DNA from: a virus
Strand: one strand, 5' to 3'
IMG/VR virus record: IMGVR_UViG_3300005253_000487
Coordinates: 24,001-88,000 of that record
Length of the DNA stretch: 64,000 nucleotides
The notes under the pieces are model-generated. The model was not told the DNA's origin. It ran no database searches and saw only the letters and a list, made by a program, of their open reading frames with translations. Position 1 is the stretch's first letter; every line of letters starts with the position of its first letter. A program made the translations under genes and the position numbers. Of the stretch, positions 1 through 54,462 are shown one piece after another.

Positions 1-1
1 A

Positions 2-16514: not shown

Positions 16515-16515
<1 letters not shown>

Positions 16516-34684: not shown

Positions 34685-35188
34685 CTACTCCGCGGGGATC
34701 AAATACGTGGCTGTGCAATTGGGCGTTTCCCACACCTCGACAGACGTGAGGCGTGCGCCCTTGATGGTTGTGTTGAGCGCCGTGTGCAAGGGGCCGGCGA
34801 TCAGACCTGCCCAATACTTCGCCAACTCCTCGGCGGTCGGGATGCATGGGACGGGTACAATACTGTTTCCTAGAAGGGCAACCCTCCTGTCGAGGTAGCT
34901 CACCAGTCGGTCTTCAGGATGTCTTGCCATTACTAATGGGTCAAGCTCCCATAGCATGAAGCAGTGATCAAACTTGGCATGAATGTGTTCCATCATTACG
35001 CGTTTGATGGCGCCGAAGTCTATTATCATACCACTGTCAGGTGCGTTGGTGCTGGGCGACACAAGACTGAGTGCGGACACGCTGGCGATGATCTTGTAGC
35101 GATGCCCATGTAGGTGTCGGCACCGGGAGTCGTGGAAAGGAACGCGGTGCCCAGCGTCGATCTCAATTGTGCGACGGACGACGTACAT
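34685..35188 (-). CDS. queD: 6-carboxytetrahydropterin synthase
   Basis: DAGHR, CRHLHGHRY, IDFG.IK, FDH, PTAE.LA, VWETP; AAGGAG RBS before ATG 35188. Confidence 0.92.
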   Translation of the reverse strand: MYVVRRTIEIDAGHRVPFHDSRCRHLHGHRYKIIASVSALSLVSPSTNAPDSGMIIDFGAIKRVMMEHIHAKFDHCFMLWELDPLVMARHPEDRLVSYLDRRVALLGNSIVPVPCIPTAEELAKYWAGLIAGPLHTALNTTIKGARLTSVEVWETPNCTATYLIPAE

Positions 35189-35204
35189 GAATGCTCCTTT
35201 TGTG

Positions 35205-35768
35205 TTATGTGACATCAAACATGTCTGGGACACTAGGTAGTCTGTCAAACAATTCATCTGGTGTGTAGTACTCCAGTAACAAGTCGAGGCGGATGATACC
35301 GAAACCCATCGTCTCATCACGATACGTAATGAGGCGGCCTAGTGTTGGACGGTATGCCCACAATGCTTCTGCCAGCCACGTGGGCATGATTGCTAGAACG
35401 GGGCGCACGTTTTGTCTGCAGATGAGGAGTGGGATAAACGTGTTGGAAAGCTTCGCTGCTTCCGCCTCCAACTTGCGCCACCAACCACGGATGTTCTGTG
35501 CGGGTTTCATGGTGTAGAGTTCCCACAGCAGATCGCCCTTTCGATGTTTGCATTCCACAATGAAGCGTCGACGGAACTTCTCCCCCTCAGGTCCATTAGG
35601 CGCAAGGTCTCCAGCTTGTCTCCACTCCTCACCTGCCGCCCACCCTCCACTTAGTCTTGTTGGGATGAGTTGCTTGGCATCCTCCCCATAGGTAAGCCAC
35701 TTGGATAGCTGACGCCCAATGAAATTCTCGAAGCGATTGCCTTTAGACTTGCCCCGTCCTGGTTTCAT
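35205..35768 (-). CDS. PD-(D/E)XK nuclease, Holliday junction resolvase-like
   Basis: KSKGNRFE, GDL, IVECK. Confidence 0.75.
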   Translation of the reverse strand: MKPGRGKSKGNRFENFIGRQLSKWLTYGEDAKQLIPTRLSGGWAAGEEWRQAGDLAPNGPEGEKFRRRFIVECKHRKGDLLWELYTMKPAQNIRGWWRKLEAEAAKLSNTFIPLLICRQNVRPVLAIMPTWLAEALWAYRPTLGRLITYRDETMGFGIIRLDLLLEYYTPDELFDRLPSVPDMFDVT

Positions 35769-35924: not shown

Positions 35925-36380
35925 TCACACTACCCCATCACTTTCACGTACGACGTAAGGCCACACGTTGCCAACAAGACCGTCTGGGCCTTGCAGCGCC
36001 ATGGGGATGAGCCAGCGGAGGTTGGGCATGATGGGCCAATTGTGCAGCACCTTGATAGGCGTCCAGAGTACCTGTTCGTCCGTCATGCTACGAATGTTGA
36101 CCTGAGCAAATGAACGGTAGAAGTGGACTACTCCTTGCGTCTCATGTCCTGTATCATGGATGGTGCAGAAATGTTCCCAGTCTATAACGTCTGCCTCGGC
36201 TTCCTCGCGGAACTCTCGGCGCATGGCTTCGAGTCCAGACTCCCCGGGTTCTATCTTCCCGCCTATACCGTTACGATGCCCTGCCTGCCACTCGGGATGG
36301 TTTTTGGTAATGAGAACAACCCGTGCGTCGTGTAACGGGCTGTCGAATAGGAAGCCGACGACGTACTCGATAGTCTTCAT
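35925..36380 (-). CDS. NUDIX hydrolase
   Basis: GGKIEPGESGLEAMRREFREE Nudix box. Confidence 0.9.
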   Translation of the reverse strand: MKTIEYVVGFLFDSPLHDARVVLITKNHPEWQAGHRNGIGGKIEPGESGLEAMRREFREEAEADVIDWEHFCTIHDTGHETQGVVHFYRSFAQVNIRSMTDEQVLWTPIKVLHNWPIMPNLRWLIPMALQGPDGLVGNVWPYVVRESDGVV

Positions 36381-37285
36381 ACAGCAATGTCTGCCTTGAT
36401 GGGTGGGTGTGGATTGTAATTGTGCAGGATGATGTCCGTGGCTGTGAAGTCGTCAATCTGTTCCACGTTCACGTTCAGGGACACCTTGGGCAATTGCCTA
36501 CTTCCGCGCTCGATTTGTGTCTCCGCTTGTTCAAAATGATTGTGGTAGAGATGCACATCTCCGAATGAGATGGTCAATGTGTTAGCCTTCAGCCCTGTCA
36601 CACGCGCCACCATCATTGTTAGCAGTGCATAGCTGGCAATGTTGAAGGGGACACCGAGGAATACGTCGGCGCTCCGCATATACATATGGCAATTGAGGTA
36701 GACGGGGTGTGGTCCGCCAGCCTGATACGCGTCCGCGGCCTCTGGTGACACTAGCACTGCGGCCCTCATGCGTTCCTCTTCGTGTGCAACTCCAGGGGTT
36801 ACTTGGAATTGGAAGAGTAGATGGCAGGGTGGTAGACCCATCCGTGGGATGAGTGGAACGTTCCATGCATTGACAATGAGTCTGCGGGACCATGGATTGT
36901 TTTTGATCTCATCGATTACTTGTGCAAGTTGGTCAATGCCTTCTTGCCTCCCCACGGTGTAGTCAGGCCAATGCCTCCATTGATAACCGTAGACTGGTCC
37001 AACATTGCCAACATTGTCTGCCCACTCATCCCAAATACGGACGCCCTTGTCTTGTAGGGATGTGATGTTCTGCTCCCCGCGGATGAACCACAGCAACTCC
37101 TCGACGACGCCCTTCCACCAAACCTTCTTGGTGGTGAGGAGTGGGAAGTTGTTGCCAATGTGGGTGAGGTTTAACTGTTCGCCGAAGAGGGATCGGCGCC
37201 CGGTACCCGTGCGGTCGGGCATGTCGTAACCGCGACTCATGATCCGGCGGATAAGATAGAGGTATCCTTGGTCAGCATAATTCAT
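36377..37285 (-). CDS. thyA: thymidylate synthase
   Basis: DRTGTG, PLLTTK, IWDEW, LPPCH, RSAD.FLG.PFN, HLY. Confidence 0.95.
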   Translation of the reverse strand: MNYADQGYLYLIRRIMSRGYDMPDRTGTGRRSLFGEQLNLTHIGNNFPLLTTKKVWWKGVVEELLWFIRGEQNITSLQDKGVRIWDEWADNVGNVGPVYGYQWRHWPDYTVGRQEGIDQLAQVIDEIKNNPWSRRLIVNAWNVPLIPRMGLPPCHLLFQFQVTPGVAHEEERMRAAVLVSPEAADAYQAGGPHPVYLNCHMYMRSADVFLGVPFNIASYALLTMMVARVTGLKANTLTISFGDVHLYHNHFEQAETQIERGSRQLPKVSLNVNVEQIDDFTATDIILHNYNPHPPIKADIAV

Positions 37286-38439
37286 GATACGTCTTCCTTG
37301 AAATGTTGTCGTGTAGGATTAAATGTGCGTTTGAGGCGGGAGGTGCCGAAACGGGTTAGCACGTCATCCACTACTGTACCTCCCCATGTTGCAAACTCAT
37401 TTACCGTAATCTCTTCTTGACCTTGTTTGCCAAGTAATGTGGCATGGTGACCTGTAGTTGTCTCTTCATGTCCTTCCGTAGCAACAGCGATGATAGTAAA
37501 GTCTTGTGCCACGCTAAGGATGGGCTGCCTCTTGCCATGTAGTAGTACGTAGCCTTGCTCAGGGTCATGTAAGTGATCCCGCCGCCGCCCAAGTCTTTGT
37601 GGCACACCGTCTGCATATCCAATCCCAAGGACGGCGATGCGGACGCGTTGTTGTAGGTAGGGTGCGTGGTTGTAATAGCCTACCCACTCCCCCCCTTCTG
37701 CTTCGTGCACACTAACGACGCGAGCGTTGACAGACATAACAGGCCACGGTTTTGGAATCTCAGGGCTGGGCCGTCCGCCGTATAAAAACGAACCTGGGCG
37801 TACAAGGTTGCATTCCCGTAGCGCTGGAGCACGCCATACGCCCGCGCTGTTGGCGATGTGGAGGTAGTGGGGCAGTGGCTTGAGATGTTCTAGCGCTAAC
37901 TCGAAGTAAGAGGCTTGGTGTGTTGTGATGCCGTGGTTGCAATCCGCCGCCGCAAGATGAGTGAATGCCCCATCACAGTGTTGGGCAGCGCACACGGCCA
38001 ACTTCCGCTTGTCTTTCCAGTGGATGCCGTTGCGGTTAAGTCCGGTGTCAATCTCGATGTGGAACGGCAGTCCTTTGTGCCACACCATAGCAACCGCAGG
38101 GTCGTCTATTACAGCCCGGAGCTTCCAGTGTGCGTAGGTGTCTAGGTTGGCAGGGACGGCGGGTGTTAGGACGAGGATGGGATCGTGGACGTAATGCCGC
38201 AGTACAATCCCTTCGTCTAACGTTGCTACACCATAACCCCATACTGGGCCGAAGCTGTTGGAGAGTGCTCTGGCAACCTCCTGCGCGCCGCAGCCGTAGG
38301 CATCTGCTTTGACCATAACAAGGAGTTGTATGTCAACCTTCCCGCGCTCTTCTGCTACCGCGTGGAGTATCTTGGCGTTGGCAACAACGTTGCCTATGTC
38401 GATGGACACCCACGCCTGTGGCCATGCTTGGTGCATCAT
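37282..38439 (-). CDS. alr: alanine racemase-family PLP enzyme (divergent substrate pocket)
   Basis: VKADAYG, GVATLDEG, IDTG..R.G, THLA.AD, ANSAG, VRPG, VGY, GYADG. Confidence 0.88.
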   Translation of the reverse strand: MMHQAWPQAWVSIDIGNVVANAKILHAVAEERGKVDIQLLVMVKADAYGCGAQEVARALSNSFGPVWGYGVATLDEGIVLRHYVHDPILVLTPAVPANLDTYAHWKLRAVIDDPAVAMVWHKGLPFHIEIDTGLNRNGIHWKDKRKLAVCAAQHCDGAFTHLAAADCNHGITTHQASYFELALEHLKPLPHYLHIANSAGVWRAPALRECNLVRPGSFLYGGRPSPEIPKPWPVMSVNARVVSVHEAEGGEWVGYYNHAPYLQQRVRIAVLGIGYADGVPQRLGRRRDHLHDPEQGYVLLHGKRQPILSVAQDFTIIAVATEGHEETTTGHHATLLGKQGQEEITVNEFATWGGTVVDDVLTRFGTSRLKRTFNPTRQHFKEDVS

Positions 38440-39425
38440 AATCCGTGTCCGTGCAACAGTGCCTCCCGCTGTTCACGGAACTCTTGTTGGAACAAAGCAT
38501 ACCCAAGCCCAACATCCCACAGTGCTAGGCCCATGGGGTTCACGATGATGGGATATTTATACTGGAGCTTGGGGTTGACGTCAGAGAACTGTGTGACGTT
38601 GGGCGTGAGTGTTGTTTGCGCTTGCCACGCGTCGTGGTAAGGTGTGTGCTGCGACGCGGCGAATTCCAAATCGTCTACCACGATCCACTTGAACCGATTG
38701 AAGAACCCAGGCGTTACGTCCCGCAAGGATGTATTGATCCATAGGAAGGCATCGAACTTGACATCTGTGGGTACCCACTGTCCTGCGCCCGCAGTGGCAA
38801 GGGAAACAATGTTCGCTACATCTACAACCTCCTGCCACGTATCGAAACAATTGGCCTGTTGGCATTGTTCTACGAAGCGTTGCGCCCGTTCCTTATCGGG
38901 ATCGTAGACAAAGAGTTGCGTGTTAGGCCAAAGTTGGTTGATGTAATGTGCCTGCCACTCATGTACGCGCCCAGCTCCAATGAGTGCGATAGCCGGGGGA
39001 GGGACGCCTCGGCAGAATTCCAAGATGGTCATGATAGCAAAGCCCGCCGTGCGTGCATTGCTCAGGTCCGTGCCGTCGAAGACCAGCAGAGGTAATCCTG
39101 TGTGGGCGCAATTCAAAATCGTTATCGCTTGTCCACGGGGTAACCCACGGGAAGTGTTTGGTGGATGGGACGAAACCCACTTCGCACCGAACACTCCTTC
39201 GGGTTCATCTGGATGCCCAACCCACGCGGACATAGTGATGGCGCGTGAGAAGCCAAAGCCCCCGGTCGTTTCCGGGTGACTAAGGTAACCCTCTTCGCCG
39301 AGGCGCGCCTCACCCGTTCGCTGTAAGGCGAGGAGGAGTTCCATCTGCTTCACCATCCAATGGGCATCCCGCAGGTTGACATACTCCGGCGTCCCTGGGG
39401 CCATCGAAACCCATTTGACGTTCAT
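38436..39425 (-). CDS. sbnB: ornithine cyclodeaminase/mu-crystallin family, SbnB-like
   Basis: GAKWVSSHPPN..RGLPR..A..ILN...TG.P....G..LS.ARTA; IGAG; NTSLRD; NPMGLA..D. Confidence 0.82.
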   Translation of the reverse strand: MNVKWVSMAPGTPEYVNLRDAHWMVKQMELLLALQRTGEARLGEEGYLSHPETTGGFGFSRAITMSAWVGHPDEPEGVFGAKWVSSHPPNTSRGLPRGQAITILNCAHTGLPLLVFDGTDLSNARTAGFAIMTILEFCRGVPPPAIALIGAGRVHEWQAHYINQLWPNTQLFVYDPDKERAQRFVEQCQQANCFDTWQEVVDVANIVSLATAGAGQWVPTDVKFDAFLWINTSLRDVTPGFFNRFKWIVVDDLEFAASQHTPYHDAWQAQTTLTPNVTQFSDVNPKLQYKYPIIVNPMGLALWDVGLGYALFQQEFREQREALLHGHGL

Positions 39426-39442
39426 GGTCTATGCTCCGTGCG

Positions 39443-39655
39443 TCAATCCACCATTGCTGTGGCACACGCACGGGCTTCATCAATCTTCCCGCCGTCCATA
39501 TCATCCTCAGGCCTTCCGTGCAACTGACGCAGGTTGGCCCACAACTCAACTAAGGCTGGGGCATGTGGGTCGCGCGCGAGTAAGATGAACATGGGTTCAT
39601 CTGGTTCTGCTTTGTCGTAGCAGTCGTTTGGTGTGGGGTTATTCTTCGTTCCCAT
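39443..39655 (-). CDS. hypothetical phage protein
   Basis: AEPDEPMFILLARD motif. Confidence 0.6.
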   Translation of the reverse strand: MGTKNNPTPNDCYDKAEPDEPMFILLARDPHAPALVELWANLRQLHGRPEDDMDGGKIDEARACATAMVD

Positions 39656-39657
39656 TA

Positions 39658-39867
39658 TCACTGCCCCCAGGCAGTGGCATTTGCTGCAGAGCCACGTTCT
39701 GTATCATACCAGTCAGTGACAGCGCTTTGGGCAGCGTTGAGTGCGTTAAGTGCATCTGTCTGACGAGACCGTGCAAGGCTTGCCGTCTGCGCCGCTGCCT
39801 CATAGTCGCTCTGCGCGTCAACCAATTCGGCGGCGAGTGTGGCGATGGACTTCTTATCATCTGTCAT
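39658..39867 (-). CDS. small coiled-coil protein
   Basis: ATGA overlap with the sbnA-like stop. Confidence 0.5.
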   Translation of the reverse strand: MTDDKKSIATLAAELVDAQSDYEAAAQTASLARSRQTDALNALNAAQSAVTDWYDTERGSAANATAWGQ

Positions 39868-40874
39868 GGTGTTAACTCTGGAAAGCCTTTCTGCCGTAAC
39901 CAGGCAGGAGAATAGATAGTCTCCTCGTACATGCGTCCACCGTCTGGGAATAGTGCAATTACAATGTCTTGGGCAACGAAGTGGTGGGCCTTCTTGTGAA
40001 TGGCTGCCCACACGGCGCCACTAGATCCGCCCACGTAAAAATCTGCATGACGAAGACCGTAGCAGGCAGCAAACGCTTCGGCGTCTGACACAATCACGAC
40101 ATCATCGATGAGGGAGCGTTGTAGGTTGGGTGGTTGGTTGAGGCTGGAGCCGATGCCATTAAGGTTGCGTAGGCGGGCGGGGCGGCCAAAGATGGCGGAC
40201 CCTTCCGCGTCTACTGCCACGATGCGGAGTTCCTTAATAGGCAGTCTGCGGCAAAGGCGCCGCAATGCCCGGGCCGAGCCGGAGAGTGATCCACCTGTAG
40301 ATACGGAAGCGAAGTACCACAGTGTCGTATTGCTATGCAGATGCACATTCTTGTTAAGGTCCCGTACGATTTCAATTGCAATGGATTCGAAGGCTAGCGG
40401 GTTGAGGGGATTGCTATATTGATTAACCCAAAACCAATCCGGGTGCTCTTCACACAACGTTTCTACTTTCTTTAGGCGTGTTAGAAGATAGCCTCCCGTC
40501 TTGTCTATGGTTGTTACTTGTATAGTTGTAGCGCCCAACTGACGCATTTCAATACCATGACTTGGCGAGAGTTTTGGATCTGTCACTAAGATTACCCTGA
40601 GACCTAGTTGCCTTCCTACATACGCAAGCGCCACACCCATGTTACCCGATGTGGATTCTATCACCGTGCTTCCCACTCGGAGTTGTGCTTCGGTTAGGAT
40701 CTTGTAGGCGGAGCGTAGCTTCATGGACCCCATTTCATTATGCGATTCCAATTTAGCATACCAACGTCCTGTACCTGTTGCGGAACGTGGCATTGCAACG
40801 AGTGGGGTGTTGCCGACGCCTAAGCATTCCTCCGTACTGGCGCCGTCCTTGATGGTAACAGGGTGTAAGATCAT
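39864..40874 (-). CDS. sbnA: PLP-dependent cysteine synthase-family enzyme, SbnA-like
   Basis: VGNTPLV, KLE, GSMK, ESTSGN.G.ALA, DPK.S, GGYLLTR, NQY.N, VSTGG, DA.GS.IFG, GIGSS, GGSSG, PDGG..Y. Confidence 0.85.
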   Translation of the reverse strand: MILHPVTIKDGASTEECLGVGNTPLVAMPRSATGTGRWYAKLESHNEMGSMKLRSAYKILTEAQLRVGSTVIESTSGNMGVALAYVGRQLGLRVILVTDPKLSPSHGIEMRQLGATTIQVTTIDKTGGYLLTRLKKVETLCEEHPDWFWVNQYSNPLNPLAFESIAIEIVRDLNKNVHLHSNTTLWYFASVSTGGSLSGSARALRRLCRRLPIKELRIVAVDAEGSAIFGRPARLRNLNGIGSSLNQPPNLQRSLIDDVVIVSDAEAFAACYGLRHADFYVGGSSGAVWAAIHKKAHHFVAQDIVIALFPDGGRMYEETIYSPAWLRQKGFPELTP

Positions 40875-41591
40875 TTAGCTAAGACCGCCTGTACGATAAT
40901 GAATACGACGTACATCGGGTGGGTTTAGGTACGGCGTCGGGTCAGGTATTTCTGCGAGGCGGTAAGCTAGCTGCCGCTCGTCGCAGTTATGACATACCCC
41001 ACACTGCTCTTCCAGCGCGTCGTGGCAGGACCAGGACAGGTGCAGTGGCAGCCCCAGGCGCGTGCCTTCCTTTACCACCTCGTCCTTGCCTAAGTGGCCG
41101 ATGGGAGACCACACAAGCCACGGGTCCGTTTTCCGTTCCATGGAGAAGCCCCAGTGGAATGCCTGTGTGATGGCCTCACGGAACTCAGGCAAGCAATCGC
41201 CCGCGTGGACCCACTTGTGGGGGGAGTAGGCAATCTCACGGCACCCGTGGCCGTAGCCTAGGATGGCCGCGTAGAGTAGGAAGATGATGTTACGCCCGGG
41301 TACGAAGTACCCTTCGGGGTCTTCGTCCTTGGTGGGAATGTGCCCGCCGCCTACAATGGACACACCCTTCACGTACTCTTTGTAGTCCGTGAGACGTCGA
41401 CGGATGAGAGTGATACGTTCCGGCGGGAAGTGGGCGATGCACTGTTGCGATCGTTTCCATTCAATCTCTGCCGTGTGTTGGTCGTAGTCGAAGAACACAC
41501 ACGTCACCACCTTCTCCGGGGACTTTTCCAGGAGTAGTCCTGCACTGACGAGTGAGTCCATGCCACCTGAGAATAACAGTATCGTGTCCAT
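40875..41591 (-). CDS. queC: 7-cyano-7-deazaguanine synthase-like ATP pyrophosphatase (possible N-terminal extension to 41720)
   Basis: SGGMDS, FDY.Q, VPGRN.IFL, DC..EF, SC..CGVCHNC..R; AGGAG RBS before ATG 41591. Confidence 0.9.
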   Translation of the reverse strand: MDTILLFSGGMDSLVSAGLLLEKSPEKVVTCVFFDYDQHTAEIEWKRSQQCIAHFPPERITLIRRRLTDYKEYVKGVSIVGGGHIPTKDEDPEGYFVPGRNIIFLLYAAILGYGHGCREIAYSPHKWVHAGDCLPEFREAITQAFHWGFSMERKTDPWLVWSPIGHLGKDEVVKEGTRLGLPLHLSWSCHDALEEQCGVCHNCDERQLAYRLAEIPDPTPYLNPPDVRRIHYRTGGLS

Positions 41592-41682: not shown

Positions 41683-44600
41683 TCATACGATATGGGATAT
41701 TCCGTCTGCGCCTTGTTCAACTTGAATGATCTCTGGCACCATGGCCTGTAAATGTGTGTCGTGTGTTATTACAAAGATAGTCGGGATCTGTTCCACTACC
41801 TGGCCTAGTGCAGCAACTAATCCTTCTGCCCCACTCGCATCGAGGAAGCTGAACACCTCATCCAGAATAAGTAGACCCAACACCCCGCGCACGCCCATCC
41901 ACTGTGCAACGGACTGGGTGAGGACAAGCATGATGCCTATGTCAACGCGTCTACGCTGTCCGCCGGACAGAGAGTTGTAGGGTACAGGCTTGCCATGCGC
42001 ATACACAACGAACTTGGTCTTCTCACGTAGCTCTCCACCCCGTGTCGTAGAGAGGGTGCTGAACTGAACGTCGTAGATGCCCTGTGTTAGCAGCGGGAAA
42101 ATATCTGCACGGCTGGCATTGAAACGCGTTGCGACTTCTTCGACCAGGAGCGACTGGAGTCCTTGCTTGGAGAAGCCCACGCGCCAGTACTCGTACATCG
42201 CAATCGTAACTTCGATCTCTTCTAAGGCAACGGCGGCGAGTGCGATTTCTTGTGCCGCGGTGCCCGCCGCTTGGCGTGTTGCTTGCATGAGGGCAGTGTG
42301 GGGATTCTGTTCTGCGTGATAACGATTCAGTGTTGCTTGTGCTTCATCAATAGCTACAGCTCTTGCCGCGTGCCGTTCTTCTATTGCTTGTCGTACAAGG
42401 TCTACGCGTGCAAGCTGCTTCTGTTGGAAGGCGCGCAACTCCAATTCTTGTTGGTAGTCCACACGCTCTGCCAACAAGCTCTTTGGAATAGTGGCGTCCG
42501 TAGTGTGGGTAATCTCCGCGGAAGTGATTGCTACTTCTTGCACGAGTTCCGCTGTACGATGTAGGCGCGCAAGGAGTGTCCGGCGTTCTTGGAGCGCGGT
42601 CGCTGACTTAGCGAATGTCTCTTCTGCTACTTGGTGACGTGCGGACACGCCATCTAACTCAGCTTCGTGTGCTGCACACTGCGCCTTAGCTTCGTCCAAT
42701 TGCTTACGTAAGGGTGCGAGGCATTGTTCGCGGTGTGCGTCCGTTACAGGTTGTTGGCACGTTGGACACACCCCTGCTAGCAATGCTGCTTCCGCTTCCG
42801 CAAGCTGCCCTGATAAGTTGAGCGTCGTTGGCCTCCAATGCCCGAGCGTGGATTCGAGTGTGGATTGCGCAACGCGTAAGTCTGTACGGTCTTGATTGTC
42901 CTGGGTGTGTTGTTCCTCTAGCCCTGTGAGGCGTTGTTGGTGTTGTGGGAGTTTGGTGACCGCCTGTTGCGCAGAGGTTAAGGAAGGGAAACCCGCGCCC
43001 GCTGAAATGCTTTGGGTGTGCAACTTACTTACCAACGCCTCAAGCTTCTGTTGGTGTTCCGCTAACAAGGCTGTCCGCACGCGTTCCGTTATTGCATCAC
43101 GCTCCGTTGCCTGTCGAGTGGTGTAATGGTCTACAAGAGCTGCGGCGCTAGCGCCAATGTGGATGTGGCGTGCCGCTTCGTGTTCAGACACTAGGATGTT
43201 GGTAGCGAGCAGATCCTCCAGCTGAACTTCGCTGTGTTTAATCCACTGCGCTAACGTCTGTTCCCAAGCGTCTGATGCTCTTTGGTGTGCTTCCGTCTCA
43301 CGTTCTGCTTCGTCTTGCTGCTTCACTAACATCTCGGCACGCGTGTCCCACCGCACGCGCTCCATGTCCTGCTTAGACACCTCAGCTTGTGCAGCACTAG
43401 ACGCGTCTTGGTAACCGTTGAGTCCAATCAAGTCCGACAGCACATCCTTACGCTGCCCATCCGTGGCGGAAGAGAAGAGCAAGAGTTTCTCTTGTGAGAA
43501 GTAGGCAAGGTTCTGGAAGATCTCCGGGGTGATGCCTAAGTAATGGCCCAACAAAGTTGTCATCTCCGTAACGGATGTTGCTTCCCATGCTACGCCCGCA
43601 GAGGTAACTTCGAGGGTGTGTCCATCGGGCCCACGCCGTCTCCACACATGTAATAAGTCTTCGCCATCTGTGAAGTCTGCGGACACTTCACACGTCTTCG
43701 TACCCCAACGAATGACATCTTCAGCTGCTAGGTCTTTGGTAGTGCGCCCAAAGAGTAACCAGTACAGCGGCTCTCCGATAAGGGAACTCTTGCCCGCACC
43801 ATTGGATGTGAAGTCTCGCCCGCGTCCTTGGATGAGGCGGACGCCCTGATGGATTGTAATGTTCTCTCGTTCAAAGCAACAAAAGTTATAGAGGCGGAGT
43901 TGCGTGAGGCGGACGTCTCGTAACTGTGTTGGGTCCTGCATTACCAACAACTCACGGCCTGCGGTAAGGTAGACAGCGTTGTCTGCGCCCTTCGGAGGCG
44001 CTTGCGTAGACAACCACACCTGCAAGATCTGATCTACCTCTGTCACGCCCCGCAACAGGTCACGGTGCTTAACGGTTGTGGGTGTGGGTGCAACAGCGAT
44101 GACCCCATCCGGGAGCACTGCGCCCTTGGGCATGGAACGGATGCGATAGAAGTGTCCGTCGTTCTTGCCAATATCTGCAGGTGTGTCCACGGTGAGGAAC
44201 TGTGGAGAGCCTCCGGACACAAACTCCAGGTCTGGATCTATAGCAGCACCGCAGTCACAACCCCCGCCTAGTCCCATTGCACAGTCGTCCGAATGATCTT
44301 CCTCAGGTAGTGTTATGACCCACCACCCGTGGTCTCCGGTGTCTCCAAAGTTATGATGCTCCGGGGATCCTGGAATGAGAATGCCTTGCCCTAACGGTGC
44401 GTCAATTTCTTGTAGGTGGTGGACGTGTCCAACAATGGACAGCCTGTGCCTAGCGAGAAGTTCTTGTGGATCCAAATCACCTTCGAGTTCAAAGTTAGTG
44501 GCGGTTGTGGAACCGCGGACCGTTTGGTGATAGATGCCCACATCTGCTGGAGGTGGGAATATTAGTGACTTGGTATGGGGTTGATAACCCGCACCTGCAA

Positions 44601-45003
44601 ATGTTAGTCCACCTGCTTCTACTTTGGGTATGACAGTAGGATCCAATACCGTCATGGGAACAGCGTGCGCGAGGGCAGCGAAGACGGTCTGGTCGATTGT
44701 AATGAGACCACCAATGCCCCGCGCATCGTGGTTGCCCCACACAACAATCTTCCGCACGTCTTTGTAGTCGTGGAGCACTTGCGTAACACCGGAGAGCACA
44801 GTGTTCAACGCATAACCTGCGGTGTGGACAAGGTCGCCGGCGAACACCCAGGGGATGTCCTCGTCCCTCGCACGCTGGAGGGAGGCGCCCAGGATGTTGA
44901 GGGAGCGGCGGAGGCGCGTGTTCTGTAGTCCTGTGTGCTGTGCGAAGGCGCTCCAGGGGTGGGCGTGCAGATCGGAGAGAAGTACGAAGCGTGGGTCACT
45001 CAT
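41683..45003 (-). CDS. fused Mre11/SbcD nuclease - Rad50/SbcC ATPase
   Basis: SDLH, AGDL, GNHD, GHVH; NGAGKSS, CPTC hook, LSGGQ, LILDEVF, ITHD in one frame. Confidence 0.9.
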   Translation of the reverse strand: MSDPRFVLLSDLHAHPWSAFAQHTGLQNTRLRRSLNILGASLQRARDEDIPWVFAGDLVHTAGYALNTVLSGVTQVLHDYKDVRKIVVWGNHDARGIGGLITIDQTVFAALAHAVPMTVLDPTVIPKVEAGGLTFAGAGYQPHTKSLIFPPPADVGIYHQTVRGSTTATNFELEGDLDPQELLARHRLSIVGHVHHLQEIDAPLGQGILIPGSPEHHNFGDTGDHGWWVITLPEEDHSDDCAMGLGGGCDCGAAIDPDLEFVSGGSPQFLTVDTPADIGKNDGHFYRIRSMPKGAVLPDGVIAVAPTPTTVKHRDLLRGVTEVDQILQVWLSTQAPPKGADNAVYLTAGRELLVMQDPTQLRDVRLTQLRLYNFCCFERENITIHQGVRLIQGRGRDFTSNGAGKSSLIGEPLYWLLFGRTTKDLAAEDVIRWGTKTCEVSADFTDGEDLLHVWRRRGPDGHTLEVTSAGVAWEATSVTEMTTLLGHYLGITPEIFQNLAYFSQEKLLLFSSATDGQRKDVLSDLIGLNGYQDASSAAQAEVSKQDMERVRWDTRAEMLVKQQDEAERETEAHQRASDAWEQTLAQWIKHSEVQLEDLLATNILVSEHEAARHIHIGASAAALVDHYTTRQATERDAITERVRTALLAEHQQKLEALVSKLHTQSISAGAGFPSLTSAQQAVTKLPQHQQRLTGLEEQHTQDNQDRTDLRVAQSTLESTLGHWRPTTLNLSGQLAEAEAALLAGVCPTCQQPVTDAHREQCLAPLRKQLDEAKAQCAAHEAELDGVSARHQVAEETFAKSATALQERRTLLARLHRTAELVQEVAITSAEITHTTDATIPKSLLAERVDYQQELELRAFQQKQLARVDLVRQAIEERHAARAVAIDEAQATLNRYHAEQNPHTALMQATRQAAGTAAQEIALAAVALEEIEVTIAMYEYWRVGFSKQGLQSLLVEEVATRFNASRADIFPLLTQGIYDVQFSTLSTTRGGELREKTKFVVYAHGKPVPYNSLSGGQRRRVDIGIMLVLTQSVAQWMGVRGVLGLLILDEVFSFLDASGAEGLVAALGQVVEQIPTIFVITHDTHLQAMVPEIIQVEQGADGISHIV

Positions 45004-45380
45004 GTAAGGAACGTGGGCTCCACGCCCAAGATCTTGCCCGTGTTCTCCTCTACCTGCACGCACCGGTCATCGTAGAGGACAAGCATGCTTAAATCCTTCT
45101 CAGCCACAATAGGTAATGTGTGTTTGAGATGCTCACGGCACCATGCGTTAATGAGACCAACGTGAGCCATAACTGTAGAGTGGCCACAGGGTGCAGCAAC
45201 ACGGGCGGTTACTATCTTGATACGGACGCCCGCTGCTAGCCAACGGCGCACGCGCTTGACCATGGGCATAATTGGGGCACCCACTTCCCAGGCACCATCA
45301 TCACGTTGTATACTGGACCACTCCCCCTCCGGAGCCATCACAGCAAGTGTGCCGTCGAGGTCAACTCCTATCCATTCCAT
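45000..45380 (-). CDS. HAD-superfamily phosphatase-like protein
   Basis: IGVDLDGTLA, VTAR, YDDR. Confidence 0.8.
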   Translation of the reverse strand: MEWIGVDLDGTLAVMAPEGEWSSIQRDDGAWEVGAPIMPMVKRVRRWLAAGVRIKIVTARVAAPCGHSTVMAHVGLINAWCREHLKHTLPIVAEKDLSMLVLYDDRCVQVEENTGKILGVEPTFLT

Positions 45381-49261: not shown

Positions 49262-49427
49262 GTTGCTCCGCTTCCCGTATGTAAGTCTGCAGACTGCGAG
49301 GCTCCGGGCAGTCCTCATGCCACACGCCTACGTTTTTTACCCACCACACACTGTCGTCAACTTCAATACCCTCATCACAGGACAAGCATGAAGTTGCGTA
49401 CTGGGTTGTGATTAGTAGTGCGCTCAT
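49248..49427 (-). CDS. 59-aa Zn-finger protein (below ORF-track cutoff)
   Basis: MSALLITTQYATSCLSCDEGIEVDDSVWWVKNVGVWHEDC...; ATGA overlap with the polymerase stop. Confidence 0.6.
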   Translation of the reverse strand: MSALLITTQYATSCLSCDEGIEVDDSVWWVKNVGVWHEDCPEPRSLQTYIREAEQREHR

Positions 49428-51781
49428 AGTTTATACTCTTCCAGGCTGCCCCACGATTCACCCACACTGTACTCCACTTCTAAGGGTACAACGAACCAAG
49501 GCTTTACCCACTCAAACACAATCGCCCTTGCCTGTTCCATAATGTGCACCACCTCCGGAACGAGCTTTGGATCGGGCGCTTCGATGAGCACGGAGTCATG
49601 GACAGTGTTGATGAAGCGCACACGTTGTAAGTTGCGGTCGTTTAACAGGCGGCGTGCGTGCACCATAATTGCAAACATTATCTGGGCGCAGGGTCCTTGG
49701 GCATGACTGTTGAGATAAGAGCGGAACGCGTGTTCTTGTCTGCCTCGGTTTGGATTGTCCCAATCACGATAGTGATAGATGTGCCCCAAGATGCTTTCGA
49801 ACCACCCACGGTTCTGGATGAATGCAACTTGGCATTCTGTGTGGTATTGGGGCAGGCGTTGGTATGTGTCGAAGAAGATAGTGGTAAAGCCCTCACACAT
49901 CGTTTGCGACCAGTCTAAGTCATACTCATTACGCGCCTGTCGTTGCACGTTCTCCCAACCCCCGCCGTACAAGAGTGCGAAGTTGATGGGCTTGGCGCGC
50001 GTGCGTTGCTCCTTCGTGGGGGTCGGTGCAAAGTTCCTGGCCGTTATTGTGTGCGCGTCGTCCCCGTTTATGTAACCTTGGATGCCTGTGGGATCCTTTG
50101 CAAGGCAGACCATGATGCGAAATTCCATCTGACTAAGATCTGCTTCAATCATTACACTGCCAGGGGGGACGCCAAATAGATCTCGTATCGCTGGTACCCG
50201 GGCGATGTTTTGCATGTTGGGCTTACGGGAGGAGGAGCGCCCAGTGTCTGTCCACGTCATTGGGTATTGGGAATGGATGCGGTTGTTAGGTTCGACTAGC
50301 TTGTCATACGCTTCAAGGTAGGTTGATAGCAGCTTGTCTACTTCCCGCACGTCCAAGAGGTGTGTTAGGAAGCCCGCACCGTCTCGAATCCATTTCTTTA
50401 TCGTCGACTTATCAGTTGAGGGTTCTCCCTTGTCTGTTGTGCCCATCGACTCGAGACGATGAATTGTGAATAGATATTCTTTAAGACCATTACCTGATTC
50501 GTGTACAGTGGGAATGAATGCAGGGTCCGCCGCCTGCCACGCTATGATGGAGGCCTTGCGTCTAGCCTTGTGCTCTTCAATTTGTGCCGCACGATACTCT
50601 TGACGTAAGTAGATGCCGGTGGTTTGGATGTGGCGAAGGACGAGGCTGCTAGGCCCGAGGACGCGGAGACAGAGGTCGCGTGTCCGGGGTTTGAGTAACT
50701 TGATGCCCTTGTAGAAAAGAAGGAGAGCCTGTACGACGTCCTCTCCGTTGTAAAGCGTATTGAGATTAGCGTCGGTATTCTTATGGGGCTGGTAGACGAG
50801 GTAGCGGTAGCCATCCAGTTCGTTTGCCGACAGCTCCTTGAGTGAGGGCATTTTGTACTGTCCGGCGTGGTACCAGATGACACCGATGTCGTAGACACCT
50901 GTGCAGCGTACATCAAAATCCAATTCGTACTCGTGCCAATCAAGATCGAAGCCTATGTTATTACTCACCACCGCCTTCTCAGGCTTACGCAGATAATCTT
51001 TGATCCGGTCAAGGAATGCAACGAACCAACTATCCTCTTCGCTTGCTGCAATGACAGTCTTGGCGTCTGCTGTAAGTGCGACACTCTTCATCTGTGCATG
51101 TGGATCCCATGAACGTAAGGTTGGTGTTTCAACGTCCAGGGAAATCAGTGGAGCAGCAAGCGCCTTGTCCAACGCTGCCCACATCTCAGCGCCCCCACCT
51201 TGCAGCACCTTCCACGGGAGCGGAGGTTCCCCGGCAGCGATGCGCGCCAATCGTTCGATGTGCTGCCTGAAGCGGGGCTCCAGGTCTGGACGCCGGAGCA
51301 TGTAGGCGGGGTGATAGATGTGATAGAAAACTTGACCGGGGAAGTCTGGGTGGTGGGCAACGTTACCACGGAAGCGATTGCTCTTTGCTCCGGGGAACAG
51401 GGCCGTGAGGGGCACGTTCCCAGCGAGCACTACAATGGGGTAGCCTCGTATCTCGTCGAGGACGAACTGCGACAGGCAGCACGCTACAGCCTTGGGCTTG
51501 GGTGTGGCATTGTTAGGTGGACGGCAGTGTAGGACATTGGAGTACGCGAACTCTGTAATGCCTACAGCGGCAAAGTGTGTGCGGAGTTTCTCACCCGCTC
51601 TGCCTGCCCAACCATAACCCTTCTCAACTTCCGTTGCACCTGGTGCTTCTCCTAAGACTAAGATGCGGGCGGTTGGCAGAGTAGCGGGTACAAAGTCCAC
51701 TAGCTTCATTGGACAATTGTGGCAACCCCCGGAAGGGTTGAGCAACTTGCTCTGGACGCCGATCTCTTCTAGTAGCGTCAT
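49424..51781 (-). CDS. polA: family A DNA polymerase with N-terminal family-4 uracil-DNA-glycosylase-like domain and 3'-5' exonuclease
   Basis: CHNC, GEAPG, CRPP.N, YHPAY; LDVET, FD; TGR.SS..PNMQN, DLSQME.R, R..AK.INF...YG, VHDS. Confidence 0.93.
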   Translation of the reverse strand: MTLLEEIGVQSKLLNPSGGCHNCPMKLVDFVPATLPTARILVLGEAPGATEVEKGYGWAGRAGEKLRTHFAAVGITEFAYSNVLHCRPPNNATPKPKAVACCLSQFVLDEIRGYPIVVLAGNVPLTALFPGAKSNRFRGNVAHHPDFPGQVFYHIYHPAYMLRRPDLEPRFRQHIERLARIAAGEPPLPWKVLQGGGAEMWAALDKALAAPLISLDVETPTLRSWDPHAQMKSVALTADAKTVIAASEEDSWFVAFLDRIKDYLRKPEKAVVSNNIGFDLDWHEYELDFDVRCTGVYDIGVIWYHAGQYKMPSLKELSANELDGYRYLVYQPHKNTDANLNTLYNGEDVVQALLLFYKGIKLLKPRTRDLCLRVLGPSSLVLRHIQTTGIYLRQEYRAAQIEEHKARRKASIIAWQAADPAFIPTVHESGNGLKEYLFTIHRLESMGTTDKGEPSTDKSTIKKWIRDGAGFLTHLLDVREVDKLLSTYLEAYDKLVEPNNRIHSQYPMTWTDTGRSSSRKPNMQNIARVPAIRDLFGVPPGSVMIEADLSQMEFRIMVCLAKDPTGIQGYINGDDAHTITARNFAPTPTKEQRTRAKPINFALLYGGGWENVQRQARNEYDLDWSQTMCEGFTTIFFDTYQRLPQYHTECQVAFIQNRGWFESILGHIYHYRDWDNPNRGRQEHAFRSYLNSHAQGPCAQIMFAIMVHARRLLNDRNLQRVRFINTVHDSVLIEAPDPKLVPEVVHIMEQARAIVFEWVKPWFVVPLEVEYSVGESWGSLEEYKL

Positions 51782-51785: not shown

Positions 51786-53015
51786 CTATATAAAATCTAA
51801 AAGGGAACGTTCCATTCCTTCTGGGTGATCTTGTTGGGGGTGTCCATCAAAGGCGCGCAGCACTGGTCCATAATCAGTGCCCAGCACCTCGTGGAGTAAC
51901 GCGTCTGGGTTGGTGTCCGCTTCGTGTTGGAGTCGTGCAATGAGGCGGAAGAGCATGATGTGATTGTGAAAAACGAAGCGGTGGGTCCAATACTCACTAT
52001 ACTTCCCGCTCACAAGGTCAGGGTACTTCTCTTCGTCTTCTAAGATCTGGGTGCATGAATAGCAATCGCATTGCCGCAGGAACATGCGTCCTACATTGTT
52101 GTCCCCACGCTCCTCCAAGGGTTTTGTAGCTAGTCCGTCCTGCACGGTTTGGATGACATGCCGATTGCGTGCTGCGATGTCTGCCGTCTGCGCGTCAGAC
52201 GTAAGGAACTCTAAGCTCGTCTGTGGACCGAGAACCATCAGTGTGGCGGCCGCTTGTGGTGCGACCGCGGCAAGGAAGTGCGCCCGCTTCATGTTGTGTT
52301 GCTTGATAAAGTGAAGGCAGTAGGCTACCGCTTTAGCATTAGAGGATGGGTCACGAGCCTTGAATGCCCAACCTTCTCCCTCGTCCTCGAACGGATAGAT
52401 CCTGGCCATGTCACTCCACCAACGCTCCATGTGCTTCGCGGTCCACCCATGCACTGCACCCCACCAACGGAAAGCGGTATCACCTTTACGAAGGCGGAGG
52501 TACGCGGGAAGCGCCCGCTTCGTGTTCGCCAGTGTAGTCTCAAGCGCAAACTCCCAGATGCGCTTGCCCTCCATGTCCACGGGTGGGATGTCCAACACAA
52601 CGCCCACAGTGCAGAGCGCCTCTTGCCATTTTAACACGTCCACGGGGTCCAGCTTTTGTTGGTGCGGTGCACCAGCGAAGCCCTTGAGCAGGGAGCAAGA
52701 CACTCCGCCCACTTCGTAGAAGGGCACGGAGTTGGACATACCATAGCGCATGGCAGAGAAGCCCCCGGAGTCTCCAAACACATACGCATCCTTTGGTAGC
52801 GCTATCGCCTTGTCACGGAAGTAGTAATACGTGATAAGAGTATGGGGATAGTAGGCGTCTGTTCCCTTCACCTCGTCATCCATCCAATTGACGAAGCTGA
52901 GATCCTGCAATGGGTTACGCGAGGTTGTCTTGCCAAGGAATTGCCGTGAGGCTTTCCCCCCAGGGATCCAACGCGTCGTCCCATCTGCTAGCGCCGGGAG
53001 GTACAAGAACTTCAT
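51786..53015 (-). CDS. dpdA: TGT-fold 7-deazaguanine DNA transglycosylase (DpdA-like)
   Basis: DSGGFS, LDIPP, VHG, HFL, SD..T, Zn motif CDCYSC...HN; between folE and polA. Confidence 0.8.
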   Translation of the reverse strand: MKFLYLPALADGTTRWIPGGKASRQFLGKTTSRNPLQDLSFVNWMDDEVKGTDAYYPHTLITYYYFRDKAIALPKDAYVFGDSGGFSAMRYGMSNSVPFYEVGGVSCSLLKGFAGAPHQQKLDPVDVLKWQEALCTVGVVLDIPPVDMEGKRIWEFALETTLANTKRALPAYLRLRKGDTAFRWWGAVHGWTAKHMERWWSDMARIYPFEDEGEGWAFKARDPSSNAKAVAYCLHFIKQHNMKRAHFLAAVAPQAAATLMVLGPQTSLEFLTSDAQTADIAARNRHVIQTVQDGLATKPLEERGDNNVGRMFLRQCDCYSCTQILEDEEKYPDLVSGKYSEYWTHRFVFHNHIMLFRLIARLQHEADTNPDALLHEVLGTDYGPVLRAFDGHPQQDHPEGMERSLLDFI

Positions 53016-53656
53016 AGTGGATGCTCCGTGCGGACCAATTGTAGGAACTCCGCACGCGCCTCAGGCTTCGTTAGGAACACCCCGCGGAGTGCTGAAGTGG
53101 AGAGATCGCCTTTGTGTTCCACCCCACGTAGTTCCATGCACATGTGGCGGGCGTGGATAACGACGCCTACTCCCCCCCGTGGCCCAAGATTGCGTGCCCG
53201 CTTACGCCACCCAGGGCCGCCTTTGTCCTCTTCCTTACCGGGGTCCTTGTCCACTACAAGGCTGGCGACGTAGTCTGCGATCTGTGCCGTCAGCTCCTCT
53301 TGCACCTGAGGGCGTCTTGCAAACCAATCTGTAATGCGTGAGAGTTTGGACAGTCCCACCAACTTGCCTGTACCTGGAACGTAACCAATTGTAGCTTCTC
53401 CGAGGAAGGGTAGTAGGTGGTGGGCACACATAGAGCGTATGGGAATGTGACGTAGCACTATCATCTCATCTACGTCCGTATCGAACGTCGTGACCTTTGG
53501 ACCGTGCTCATTTAGTCCACGGCACAGTTCGTGCGTCCATGCTTTGGCGGCCCGCTTTGGTGTATCCTCCAGATGCCCCTCTAGCTTTTCGTAGCCAAGG
53601 CAGCGTAAAACCTCGGCGAAGGCAGTTGCCAATCCTTCCTCGTCTATCTTGTGCAT
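53012..53656 (-). CDS. folE: GTP cyclohydrolase I
   Basis: DTPKR, SMCAHHLLPF, GLSKL.R, RRPQVQE, HMCM..RG. Confidence 0.93.
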   Translation of the reverse strand: MHKIDEEGLATAFAEVLRCLGYEKLEGHLEDTPKRAAKAWTHELCRGLNEHGPKVTTFDTDVDEMIVLRHIPIRSMCAHHLLPFLGEATIGYVPGTGKLVGLSKLSRITDWFARRPQVQEELTAQIADYVASLVVDKDPGKEEDKGGPGWRKRARNLGPRGGVGVVIHARHMCMELRGVEHKGDLSTSALRGVFLTKPEARAEFLQLVRTEHPL

Positions 53657-54462
53657 TAACGTACTCCTATCACCTTGTGGATTTGAACGCTGATGCGCCA
53701 ACGTGGATCATTACGTGTGATTTCCAGACAGCGGTCCACGGCGCCTGGAGCGAAGCCCGGGAAGCCTTTGCGCCACTCTTCGCCACTGCCGTCACTAAGC
53801 ACGGCGGGACTGACGTAGTGCTTGGGTGCCGCGTAGTAGATTGGGTGTCCGGTATTCTCGTCTGCGATAACGTAACGATACTCTCCACCACGCCCGTGGG
53901 TCATTGCACGTTTTGATAGTAGTGTTATGACTTCGCGTGAGAGCTTAGACGATTGTGGATTGTGATTGTGGGCAAGTGCGGTTGATGTTTGGGCAATCTG
54001 GTCCTTAGGACTTACGGTAATCCAATCCACGGTCTCGAGCGTCTCCCGGTACGTCGTACCGTTTGTTTCAACAGCGACGTAGAAAGTGGGAGTATGTTGC
54101 ATGGCGCGTAACACGACGGCGTCGAACTGCGGAGAGGCGGTGGGTTCCCCCCCGGTAAGGATGAGCATGGGTGCATCCTCCAAGCGTGCTCTGCCAAATG
54201 TGCGTACCTTGGGTATGAGTGGTGCAATCATGTCGTCAAACAATGCGTCGAGTGTTACTTTATGCCTAGCTTTCATGTAAGGGGTGTCGCACACGACACC
54301 GGGTGCAAACTCGCACGCGAGTGGACAGCCGGCAAAGCGCACAAAGATGGCCCAACGCCCAGCATTACGTCCCTCACCTTGTGGAGCAGCAAAGACTTCG
54401 ACCAGTGAGACTGTTGGTTCCAGTTTAGGGGCCCCTCCACGGTCTCGAGCGTCTCTCGGCAC
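53656..54462 (-). CDS. queE: 7-carboxy-7-deazaguanine synthase (radical SAM); exact start uncertain
   Basis: EVF...QGEG, FVRFAGC, CDT, LTGGEP, ETNG, TVSPK, S.Q.HK. Confidence 0.92.
   Translation of the reverse strand: MPRDARDRGGAPKLEPTVSLVEVFAAPQGEGRNAGRWAIFVRFAGCPLACEFAPGVVCDTPYMKARHKVTLDALFDDMIAPLIPKVRTFGRARLEDAPMLILTGGEPTASPQFDAVVLRAMQHTPTFYVAVETNGTTYRETLETVDWITVSPKDQIAQTSTALAHNHNPQSSKLSREVITLLSKRAMTHGRGGEYRYVIADENTGHPIYYAAPKHYVSPAVLSDGSGEEWRKGFPGFAPGAVDRCLEITRNDPRWRISVQIHKVIGVR

Follow-up and report, generated by a model that had tools for sequence, protein, structure and literature searches.

The locus described here raises the question of why a phage should couple a gene of 7-deazaguanine synthesis to genes for making an amino acid. 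The window, that is the whole stretch of 64,000 nucleotides that was analysed, spans bases 24001–88000 of the 88,000-base IMG/VR virus record IMGVR_UViG_3300005253_000487 and belongs to an uncultured phage. On its minus strand, a divergent QueC homologue (hereafter QueC*, a name used for the protein of the window phage and of its clade) is encoded directly ahead of SbnA-like and SbnB-like enzymes, which are predicted to make L-2,3-diaminopropionate (Dap). The proposed answer is that QueC* may be a 7-carboxy-7-deazaguanine (CDG):Dap amide synthetase feeding a DpdA-like DNA guanine transglycosylase, with both CDG and Dap made by the phage. Judged from the sequences, this proposal stands an even chance of being right. 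A wider claim is more tentative, somewhat short of even. According to it, an uncultured phage lineage replaces guanine in its DNA by CDG amide-linked to L- or D-Dap, using a QueC subfamily that has switched from ammonia to Dap and a Dap synthase of its own; the QueC/SbnA partnership also occurs in a Streptomyces deazapurine cluster, and a second phage lineage combines SbnA-SbnB with a PurA/PurZ-like enzyme.

Coupling of queC* to the putative diaminopropionate genes

The stop codon of queC* (TAA, 40877–40875) directly abuts the ATG of sbnA (40874). ATGA overlaps join sbnA to the first of two small open reading frames (ORFs), sbnB to the racemase gene alr, and alr to thyA, all as read from the sequence. 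The original prediction had described the TAA/ATG junction at 40875/40874, followed by the two small ORFs, sbnB-like, alr-like, thyA, NUDIX and queD genes, and had placed folE, queE and a dpdA of the tRNA-guanine transglycosylase (TGT) fold in the same arm. The junction was confirmed by direct reading, gene identities and junctions agree with the order, and family matches, motifs and structure modelling agree with the third point (Table 1). The folE, queE and dpdA-like genes lie 11 kb beyond the queC-to-queD block, in the same minus-strand arm. Promoter- or terminator-like sites were not in excess inside the block. A longer QueC of 281 residues, starting at a TTG, was rejected because the extension runs into the SbcCD gene and the homologues begin at the ATG.

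QueC* forms a separate clade with altered motifs

Among 5.8 billion proteins, the QueC* clade comprises 12 clusters with 56–87% identity and 265–572 bits, and the next protein follows at 71 bits and about 30% identity. QueC* exceeds the Pfam gathering score (100.6 against 22 bits) and stays below the equivalog cut-offs of TIGR00364 (81.7 against 150.3) and NF008317 (39.4 against 378). The ATP-binding loop SGGxDS is kept as FSGGMDS, invariant in the clade, and VPxRN is kept as FVPGRN. The zinc motif is also conserved, with C189, C197, C200 and C203 invariant and a first spacing of 7 residues where the canonical form, C(x)8CxxCxxC, has 8.

Two other motifs are changed. At the position of YPDC, a deletion of two residues leaves (A/S)G--DC in 12 of 12 members, so that Tyr-Pro is lost, while [YF]xDC is kept in all 50 canonical, characterised-phage and upper-tier Streptomyces homologues compared. 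The QueC proteins of the characterised phages CPt10, Arbiter, nt-1 and Mufasa8 likewise keep an aromatic-x-D-C. The second motif, YxQxHxxE, appears as Yx(Q/H)xT(A/V/T)xxE, with His replaced by Thr and one extra residue before Glu. Queuosine synthesis that depends on preQ0 requires two tyrosines of E. coli QueC, one in YPDC and one in YxQxHxxE (PMC13329287). In the Streptomyces protein RoyL, Tyr41, His45 and Glu48 of YxQxHxxE form the amine pocket (bioRxiv 10.64898/2026.04.15.718813). By its sequence, QueC* belongs to a rare clade of its own, in which the pocket for substrate and amine is remodelled.

The SbnA-like, SbnB-like and racemase enzymes

The SbnA-like protein matches TIGR03945 with 274.5 bits, better than any other NCBIfam model by 120 bits, and its best matches in the Protein Data Bank (PDB) are SbnA and CmnB. 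Residues K47, R132, Y152 and S185 (numbering of S. aureus SbnA) all align and are invariant or nearly so in the 21-member phage clade. K47 is presumably the lysine binding pyridoxal phosphate (PLP), and Arg132, Tyr152 and Ser185 are taken here to be the substrate residues of S. aureus SbnA. In the search of 5.8 billion proteins, 20 metagenomic clusters at 45–67% identity make up this clade, after which identity drops to about 40% for bacterial SbnA. For the SbnB-like protein, TIGR03944 is the best match (142.5 bits), and the PDB matches are SbnB (4M54, 1.4e-14), CmnK (5.9e-14) and alanine dehydrogenase (3e-13). From these matches, the SbnA-like protein is a divergent member of its family and the SbnB-like protein probably one of its own, and as a pair they correspond to the only two structurally characterised Dap synthase pairs.

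The racemase scores 176.5 bits with TIGR00492, above the cut-off of 168, and its best PDB match is the serine racemase VanT(G). It has the two-domain fold, the catalytic Lys (VKADAYG, residue 43) and the catalytic Tyr (VGY, residue 253). The residue which sets side-chain specificity is Tyr in alanine racemases and Asn in VanT (PMC4542195). An Asp is found at this position (BsAlr Tyr354, VanTG Asn696). Among the query and its 125 nearest representatives, Tyr occupies it in 86 of 126 and Asp in 5, including the nearest relative. An acidic residue here would suit the cationic side chain of Dap.

Thymidylate synthase was considered as a hydroxymethylase for a Dap-bearing thymidine hypermodification. 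This candidate was discarded, as ThyA lies above the equivalog cut-offs for thymidylate synthase and neither a kinase nor an aGPT-Pplase was seen.

Conserved core and module swap among phage relatives

A 4-kb contig, L002, carries the genes in the order SbcC-QueC*-SbnA-SbnB-ThyA, with 52–64% identity across QueC*, SbnA and SbnB. Both small ORFs and the racemase are absent from it, and ThyA follows SbnB directly. The ORF after SbnB in L002 was tried as a racemase and rejected, as it carries thymidylate synthase motifs. Because L002 does without the small ORFs and the racemase, the conserved core, as far as can be judged from the sequences, is QueC*-SbnA-SbnB, and small ORFs 1 and 2 are outside the conserved module. 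The original prediction had counted the racemase as part of the module, which its absence from L002 does not support. SbnA-like and SbnB-like genes are adjacent in L002 and in a further contig, L003, discussed below; in the window the two small ORFs lie between them.

Further contigs were assessed from the member lists of protein clusters. These lists were taken as positive evidence only for co-occurrence, given that at cluster level the QueC of the window itself is listed under a 21,797-bp contig. A 68,812-bp contig holds SbnA (P0002) and QueC* (P0300), and a 90,792-bp contig holds SbnA (P0004), QueC* (P0127) and a DpdA-like protein (P0255). A 62,277-bp contig with QueC* (P0126) had no SbnA assigned, which under positive-only evidence is uninformative either way.

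Three relatives came to light when IMG/VR was searched with a profile of the DpdA-like family. In one of them, L213 (G403, a 99-kb record), synteny with the window extends along the entire replication arm, and a canonical QueC with 194.7 bits and the motifs YGQKH and IYPDC stands between folE and dpdA. No SbnA was found anywhere in this record, and the same search found SbnA in the record of the window phage (G000), which served as positive control. The other two relatives, L211 and L212, have no QueC at the folE/dpdA junction, as in the window, and both contigs end before the SbcCD site. By sequence comparison, the two lineages differ by a module swap, with a canonical QueC in one and QueC*-SbnA-SbnB in the other.

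Kinship with SbnA-linked QueC homologues of Streptomyces

RoyL and its relatives are divergent QueC homologues from peptidyl-deazapurine clusters of Streptomyces. To adenylated CDG they join D-Ala-D-Ala or one of the amino acids L-lysine, L-ornithine and L-diaminobutyrate (bioRxiv 10.64898/2026.04.15.718813, its ref. 16). A QueC-family match was obtained in 50 of 401 Streptomyces genomes, and twelve of the low-scoring loci (L199–L210) were taken. All 12 adjoin folE and queE, and none of the 12 has the aromatic residue of YPDC. Two of them, L200 and L201, fit the published residue numbering of RoyL; their neighbours are an ATP-grasp amino-acid ligase, an ornithine/diaminopimelate (Orn/DAP) decarboxylase and a regulator of the Streptomyces antibiotic regulatory protein (SARP) type.

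In L205 and L206, an SbnA-like gene which keeps the SbnA signature residues stands directly after folE. Their QueC homologues share with the phage clade the change of His to Thr with the extra residue, as well as the loss of Tyr. The phage QueC* clade is sister to L205/L206 (FastTree support 0.947; IQ-TREE ultrafast bootstrap, UFBoot, 100 for the split), and the candidate RoyL-like Streptomyces loci, which stand in for RoyL itself in this tree, form a branch separate from the phage clade. QueC* and L205/L206 have the same motif changes and each an SbnA-like neighbour, which argues for a real grouping.

The L205 cluster (6445–16604) and L206, from genomes G029 and G372, encode a serine hydroxymethyltransferase-like protein, the QueC-like protein, QueE, FolE, the PLP enzyme with the SbnA signature, a GT4 glycosyltransferase, an ABC transporter and a PIG-L deacetylase. 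A putative ORF of queD size lies between QueE and FolE.

The remaining deazaguanine genes and the DpdA-like protein

Besides queC*, the complete 88-kb record contains no second gene of the QueC family. The original prediction had noted that QueF was missing from the window, and this extends to the entire record, in which no QueF was found. Since QueC* is the sole QueC-family gene and QueF is lacking, CDG made by the phage would have no other phage-encoded route to a DpdA substrate. Alongside the phage pathway, no equivalents of Gat-QueC, ArcS, DpdL, DpdM or DpdN were found. No amidotransferase turned up among the arm ORFs scanned, a scan which many small ORFs fell outside. QueD retains the catalytic Cys and HGH, and the presence of this Cys excludes that it is the CDG decarboxylase DpdL. 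A 163-aa ORF beside queE was considered as QueF and rejected: it has no family match and leads in the ESM Atlas to phage clamp-loader-like clusters.

The DpdA-like ORF has no Pfam TGT match. Among 33 homologues, GDSGG and H350 show no variation, and C316, C318 and C321 show hardly any (CxCxxC...H). The AlphaFold2 (AF2) model has a predicted local distance difference test (pLDDT) score of 89.7, and the top 49 Foldseek matches are all tRNA-guanine transglycosylases, with probability 1.00 and a template modelling (TM) score of about 0.55. In the ESM Atlas, the protein leads to viral TGT clusters. Its assignment as a TGT-fold DpdA-like protein stands because GDSGG and CxCxxC...H are kept and the top structural matches of the model are TGTs only. 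Two tandem DpdA-like paralogues are present in the relatives L211 (1831–3977) and L213 (10001–12195), against one in the window.

The gene for hypoxanthine-guanine phosphoribosyltransferase (HGPRT) adjoins queE and folE. This enzyme probably recycles the guanine displaced by DpdA to GMP and GTP, the precursor of the deazaguanine pathway.

Proposed pathway

In the pathway proposed, FolE, QueD and QueE would convert GTP into CDG, while the SbnA-like and SbnB-like enzymes would make L-Dap from O-phosphoserine and glutamate. The racemase with the Asp pocket may turn L-Dap into the D form in the window phage, as a lineage-specific accessory. QueC* would adenylate CDG and condense it with Dap to a CDG-Dap carboxamide, in place of the ammonia step leading to preQ0. 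The DpdA-like protein would then exchange the CDG-Dap base for guanine in phage DNA, and HGPRT would recycle the guanine released. A charged 7-deazaguanine bearing an amino acid might shield the DNA from host nucleases. Here we infer the Dap product, the amide ligation, the identity of the amine, whether ligation precedes insertion, and the protection of the DNA.

Eight 7-deazaguanine derivatives are described from viruses (dPreQ0, dADG, dG+, dPreQ1, mdPreQ1, fdPreQ1, dDG and dCDG), none of which is an amino-acid conjugate (PMC10516641, PMC6884629). No link between diaminopropionate and DpdA or deazaguanine was found in the literature searched. The central claim of the original prediction, that the phage produces Dap and QueC attaches it to the deazaguanine, has become more likely through the remodelled pocket, the linkage to SbnA-SbnB, the module swap, the grouping with Streptomyces and the precedent of RoyL; the racemase that it included is not conserved.

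Several observations weigh against the Dap pathway. To our knowledge, there is no precedent for a DpdA that accepts so bulky a base. The SbnA-like and SbnB-like proteins both score under their NCBIfam equivalog cut-offs (349.95 and 326.9 bits, respectively), and L002 has neither the racemase nor the two small ORFs. The loss of Tyr as a correlate of amide-synthetase function is inferred here and is not a published signature. The sister grouping of QueC* and L205 joins two long branches, for which attraction may be responsible. No SbnB-like gene was found within 8 kb at L205 and L206, and for that reason the product that the SbnA-like partners have in common may be something other than free Dap.

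The distribution of the genes also counts against it. QueC* and SbnA are placed together on four contigs only, all of one phage lineage, and most members of the clade are on contigs too short to judge. In L003 (P0019 cluster), which represents a second sub-lineage of the phage SbnA clade, SbnA-SbnB are followed by a phrog_2971 protein and a divergent PurA/PurZ-like synthetase, and no QueC was found within 17 kb of them. Co-occurrence with queC across relatives, the check proposed in the original prediction, holds for sbnA and sbnB in L002 and for sbnA on the 68,812-bp and 90,792-bp contigs, and L003 is in part the case which that prediction named as refuting. The L003 region (9920–14039) belongs to the metagenome contig Ga0335071_10000764, which is unrelated and phage-like, with genes for an InPase-domain protein and a GDP-mannose dehydratase upstream. 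By analogy, SbnA-SbnB in L003 would again adjoin an enzyme of the kind in which a purine position is activated and then condensed with the amine of an amino acid. This second lineage, with its PurA/PurZ-like enzyme, hints that phage-made Dap may be a general amine donor for purine hypermodification.

Alternative explanations

One alternative is an ordinary pathway: QueC* would be fast-evolving and still make preQ0, or 7-amido-7-deazaguanine (ADG), with ammonia, and SbnA-SbnB-racemase would be an independent module, placed by chance among genes of nucleotide metabolism, that supplies Dap or D-amino acids for manipulating the host through its cell wall, siderophores or in other ways. The five known genes of the pathway are all present, auxiliary genes are often gathered in phage early regions, SbnA-SbnB of the same clade occur in L003 without a nearby QueC, and the racemase exceeds its alanine racemase equivalog cut-off. 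Against this, the Tyr essential for preQ0 is deleted in 12 of 12 clade members and kept in every preQ0-type QueC compared (PMC13329287), and the stop/start abutment goes together with conserved adjacency in L002. Moreover, a canonical QueC stands in for QueC* exactly where SbnA is absent, and the nearest non-phage QueC relatives adjoin an SbnA-like gene as well. This explanation is considered unlikely.

Dap or the SbnA product could also serve as a transient nitrogen carrier, the adduct being cleaved, for example by PLP-dependent beta-elimination through the racemase-like enzyme, to ADG or an amidine; or the SbnA-like enzyme could alkylate a deazaguanine amine directly. CysK-fold enzymes accept many nucleophiles. 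Such a course would resemble the use of lysine in the ArcS/RaSEA archaeosine route and of aspartate by PurA/PurB, and known relatives of the PurA/PurZ-like neighbour in L003 use an amino acid as a removable amine donor. In addition, the Streptomyces sister loci have an SbnA-like gene without SbnB, and the intermediate in common need not be free Dap. Free ammonia is the usual substrate of QueC, however, and a costly carrier would offer no evident gain; the racemase, as candidate for the cleavage, is absent from L002; and SbnB is kept with SbnA in three of three phage loci, which fits the classical two-step Dap route. On balance, a removable Dap or other SbnA chemistry is distinctly unlikely.

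At least as improbable is a free CDG-Dap metabolite, which would act in infection as an inhibitor or signal resembling peptidyl-deazapurines, while DpdA would insert CDG or host preQ0. The phage keeps DpdA and has no other enzyme to finish a DpdA substrate, and the canonical QueC between folE and dpdA in the L213 lineage argues that DpdA uses the product of QueC. Exporter or further tailoring genes were not seen among the arm ORFs scanned. In favour of a free metabolite, the products of RoyL type are secondary metabolites (bioRxiv 10.64898/2026.04.15.718813), the sister loci L205/L206 hold a glycosyltransferase and an ABC exporter, and dCDG is a known phage DNA base (PMC10516641).

Decoration of virion glycans or of the host envelope, with Dap or a D-amino acid feeding head-arm sugar genes or host peptidoglycan, is very improbable: the structural arm does offer a possible alternative sink in its KdsB-like, KdsD-like SIS/CBS isomerase, radical SAM and methyltransferase genes, but the Dap genes lie on the opposite strand, 30 kb from them, in the replication and nucleotide arm and translationally coupled to queC, no ligase for sugars or muropeptides is adjacent, and the remodelled QueC and the module swap would be left unexplained.

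Source record and neighbouring genes

The record has an estimated completeness of 83% (CheckV). Its final 100 bases (87901–88000) are identical to bases 41–140, and the first 40 bases do not recur (G000:C1); the phage genome is probably circularly permuted or terminally redundant, with a size of about 87.9 kb. Structural genes are on the plus strand, and genes of replication and nucleotide metabolism form a long minus-strand arm that wraps around the record ends.

No close relative was found among cultured phages, the best match for PolA having 26% identity. Megablast of the block against 50,697 phage records gave no close relative either, and tblastn of SbnA against the same records returned only cysteine synthases with at most 35% identity, of which several came from short records (a few kb) that lack annotation. 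IMG/VR scans with single proteins (SbnA, PolA, QueC) and with profiles of the SbnA clade (A1) and the QueC* clade (A7) yielded no relatives. A scan of GTDB genomes with the SbnA-clade profile A1 yielded only bacterial SbnA, with at most 43% identity.

Table 1. Deazaguanine, putative diaminopropionate and associated genes of the window (window positions)
Product	Position	Strand	Basis or remark
QueC*, predicted CDG:diaminopropionate amide synthetase	40875-41591	-	PF06508 100.6 bits
SbnA-like PLP enzyme; O-phosphoserine + glutamate to N-(2-amino-2-carboxyethyl)-L-glutamate (ACEGA), predicted	39864-40874	-	PALP; best NCBIfam TIGR03945
Small ORF 1, 69 aa, Ala/Gln-rich, probably helical	39658-39867	-	No family match; absent in L002
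Small ORF 2, 70 aa	39443-39655	-	No family match; absent in L002
SbnB-like NAD-dependent dehydrogenase; ACEGA to L-Dap + 2-oxoglutarate, predicted	38436-39425	-	OCD/mu-crystallin; best NCBIfam TIGR03944
Alanine/serine-racemase-family PLP enzyme, candidate Dap racemase, accessory	37282-38439	-	Ala_racemase N + C domains; TIGR00492
Canonical thymidylate synthase ThyA	36377-37285	-	NF002497 347.9 bits (cut-off 327); TIGR03284 309.6 bits
NUDIX hydrolase	35925-36380	-	PF00293 32.7 bits
QueD (6-carboxytetrahydropterin synthase)	34685-35320	-	PF01242 87.7 bits; likely start at Met at about 35188
DpdA-like DNA guanine transglycosylase, TGT fold, 409 aa	51786-53015	-	Motifs and AF2/Foldseek
FolE (GTP cyclohydrolase I)	53012-53701	-	PF01227 172.8 bits
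QueE (7-carboxy-7-deazaguanine synthase)	53656-54462	-	TIGR04508 85.8 bits, best match; radical SAM
HGPRT (hypoxanthine-guanine phosphoribosyltransferase)	55608-56189	-	TIGR01203 156.3 bits (cut-off 150)

Next to the block, a single ORF of 1126 aa (41683–45063, minus strand) combines an N-terminal calcineurin-like phosphoesterase (SbcD/Mre11-like) with an SbcC/Rad50-like ATPase; the C-terminus of the ORF shares 82% identity with its counterpart in L002. The family A DNA polymerase (49424–51781, minus strand) has an N-terminal domain of the uracil-DNA-glycosylase superfamily (PF03167, residues 36–173) before the exonuclease and polymerase domains. A 297-aa protein of the methyltransferase fold, with a weak spermidine-synthase-like match of 22.9 bits, is encoded where the minus-strand arm runs beyond the window (L163, 12607–13500, minus strand). 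The head arm (window 1–8070; L164 2013–4178) encodes a KdsB-like cytidylyltransferase, a KdsD-like SIS/CBS isomerase, a 389-aa radical SAM enzyme and three methyltransferases, which suggests synthesis or modification of sugars for the virion.

Significance

If the Dap pathway is correct, the CDG-Dap conjugate would be the first viral 7-deazaguanine to bear an amino acid, and the major groove would gain a primary amine and a carboxylate from it. The QueC scaffold would have switched its nucleophile in phages as well, besides Streptomyces metabolism and Cap9/QatC defence, and the loss of the YPDC tyrosine together with a YxQxT..E pocket would be a sequence signature predicting the switch. Practical use could be made of a nuclease-resistant DNA chemistry and of a ligase and transglycosylase pair to install a reactive handle on DNA. 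Should the hypothesis be false, the locus would remain a rare example of a Dap pathway carried by a phage.

Comparison with known systems

The known L-Dap synthase pairs are SbnA/SbnB of staphyloferrin B synthesis and CmnB/CmnK and VioB/VioK of capreomycin and viomycin synthesis. The best structural matches of the phage pair are to SbnA/SbnB and CmnB/CmnK, with the SbnA substrate residues kept and the genes adjacent. It differs from the bacterial SbnA pairs by an SbnA of about 40% identity, by belonging to a phage-only clade and by scores under the equivalog cut-offs. The neighbour in the phage is a QueC homologue, and no siderophore synthetase or nonribosomal peptide synthetase is nearby. With VanT and alanine racemase, the phage racemase shares the fold and the catalytic Lys and Tyr; it differs by the Asp at the specificity position and has neither a membrane domain nor a van operon.

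Cap9 and QatC attach CDG to a protein N-terminus in type IV cyclic oligonucleotide-based antiphage signalling systems (CBASS) and in Qat defence (PMC13279940, PMC13329287). The trait in common would be that CDG is ligated, with ATP, to an amine that is not ammonia, which for QueC* is proposed. Cap9 keeps YxDC, and QatC, of about 400 aa, has all canonical motifs replaced (PMC13329287). QueC* by contrast keeps VPGRN and the QueC zinc motif, and matches QatC weakly and partially, with 27.7 bits against a cut-off of 280. The partners of these systems, namely the cGAS/DncV-like nucleotidyltransferase (CD-NTase), QatA, QatB and QatD, are absent from the phage locus. The original prediction had drawn on Cap9/QatC as precedent; RoyL, a QueC homologue that joins diamino acids to CDG, is a closer one.

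With RoyL, the phage system has in common a QueC scaffold beside CDG-forming genes, which in the phage are folE, queD and queE in the same arm. The proposed phage nucleophile, Dap, is the next lower homologue in the series of diaminobutyrate, ornithine and lysine. The aromatic residue of YPDC is lost in the phage clade as it is in L200/L201, the loci that fit the RoyL numbering. Unlike in RoyL, the amine-pocket motif of the phage protein has Thr for His and one extra residue, and the phage product is proposed to enter DNA through DpdA, whereas the RoyL product is a secreted metabolite.

Finally, the window phage has the same five-gene core with a post-replicative TGT-fold transglycosylase as the phage 7-deazaguanine systems described (FolE-QueD-QueE-QueC and DpdA; PMC6884629, PMC10516641). 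It departs from them in that its QueC is without the Tyr-Pro of YPDC and is coupled to SbnA-SbnB, and its DpdA is too divergent for the Pfam TGT model, while the ordinary form of the system is carried by the syntenic relative L213.

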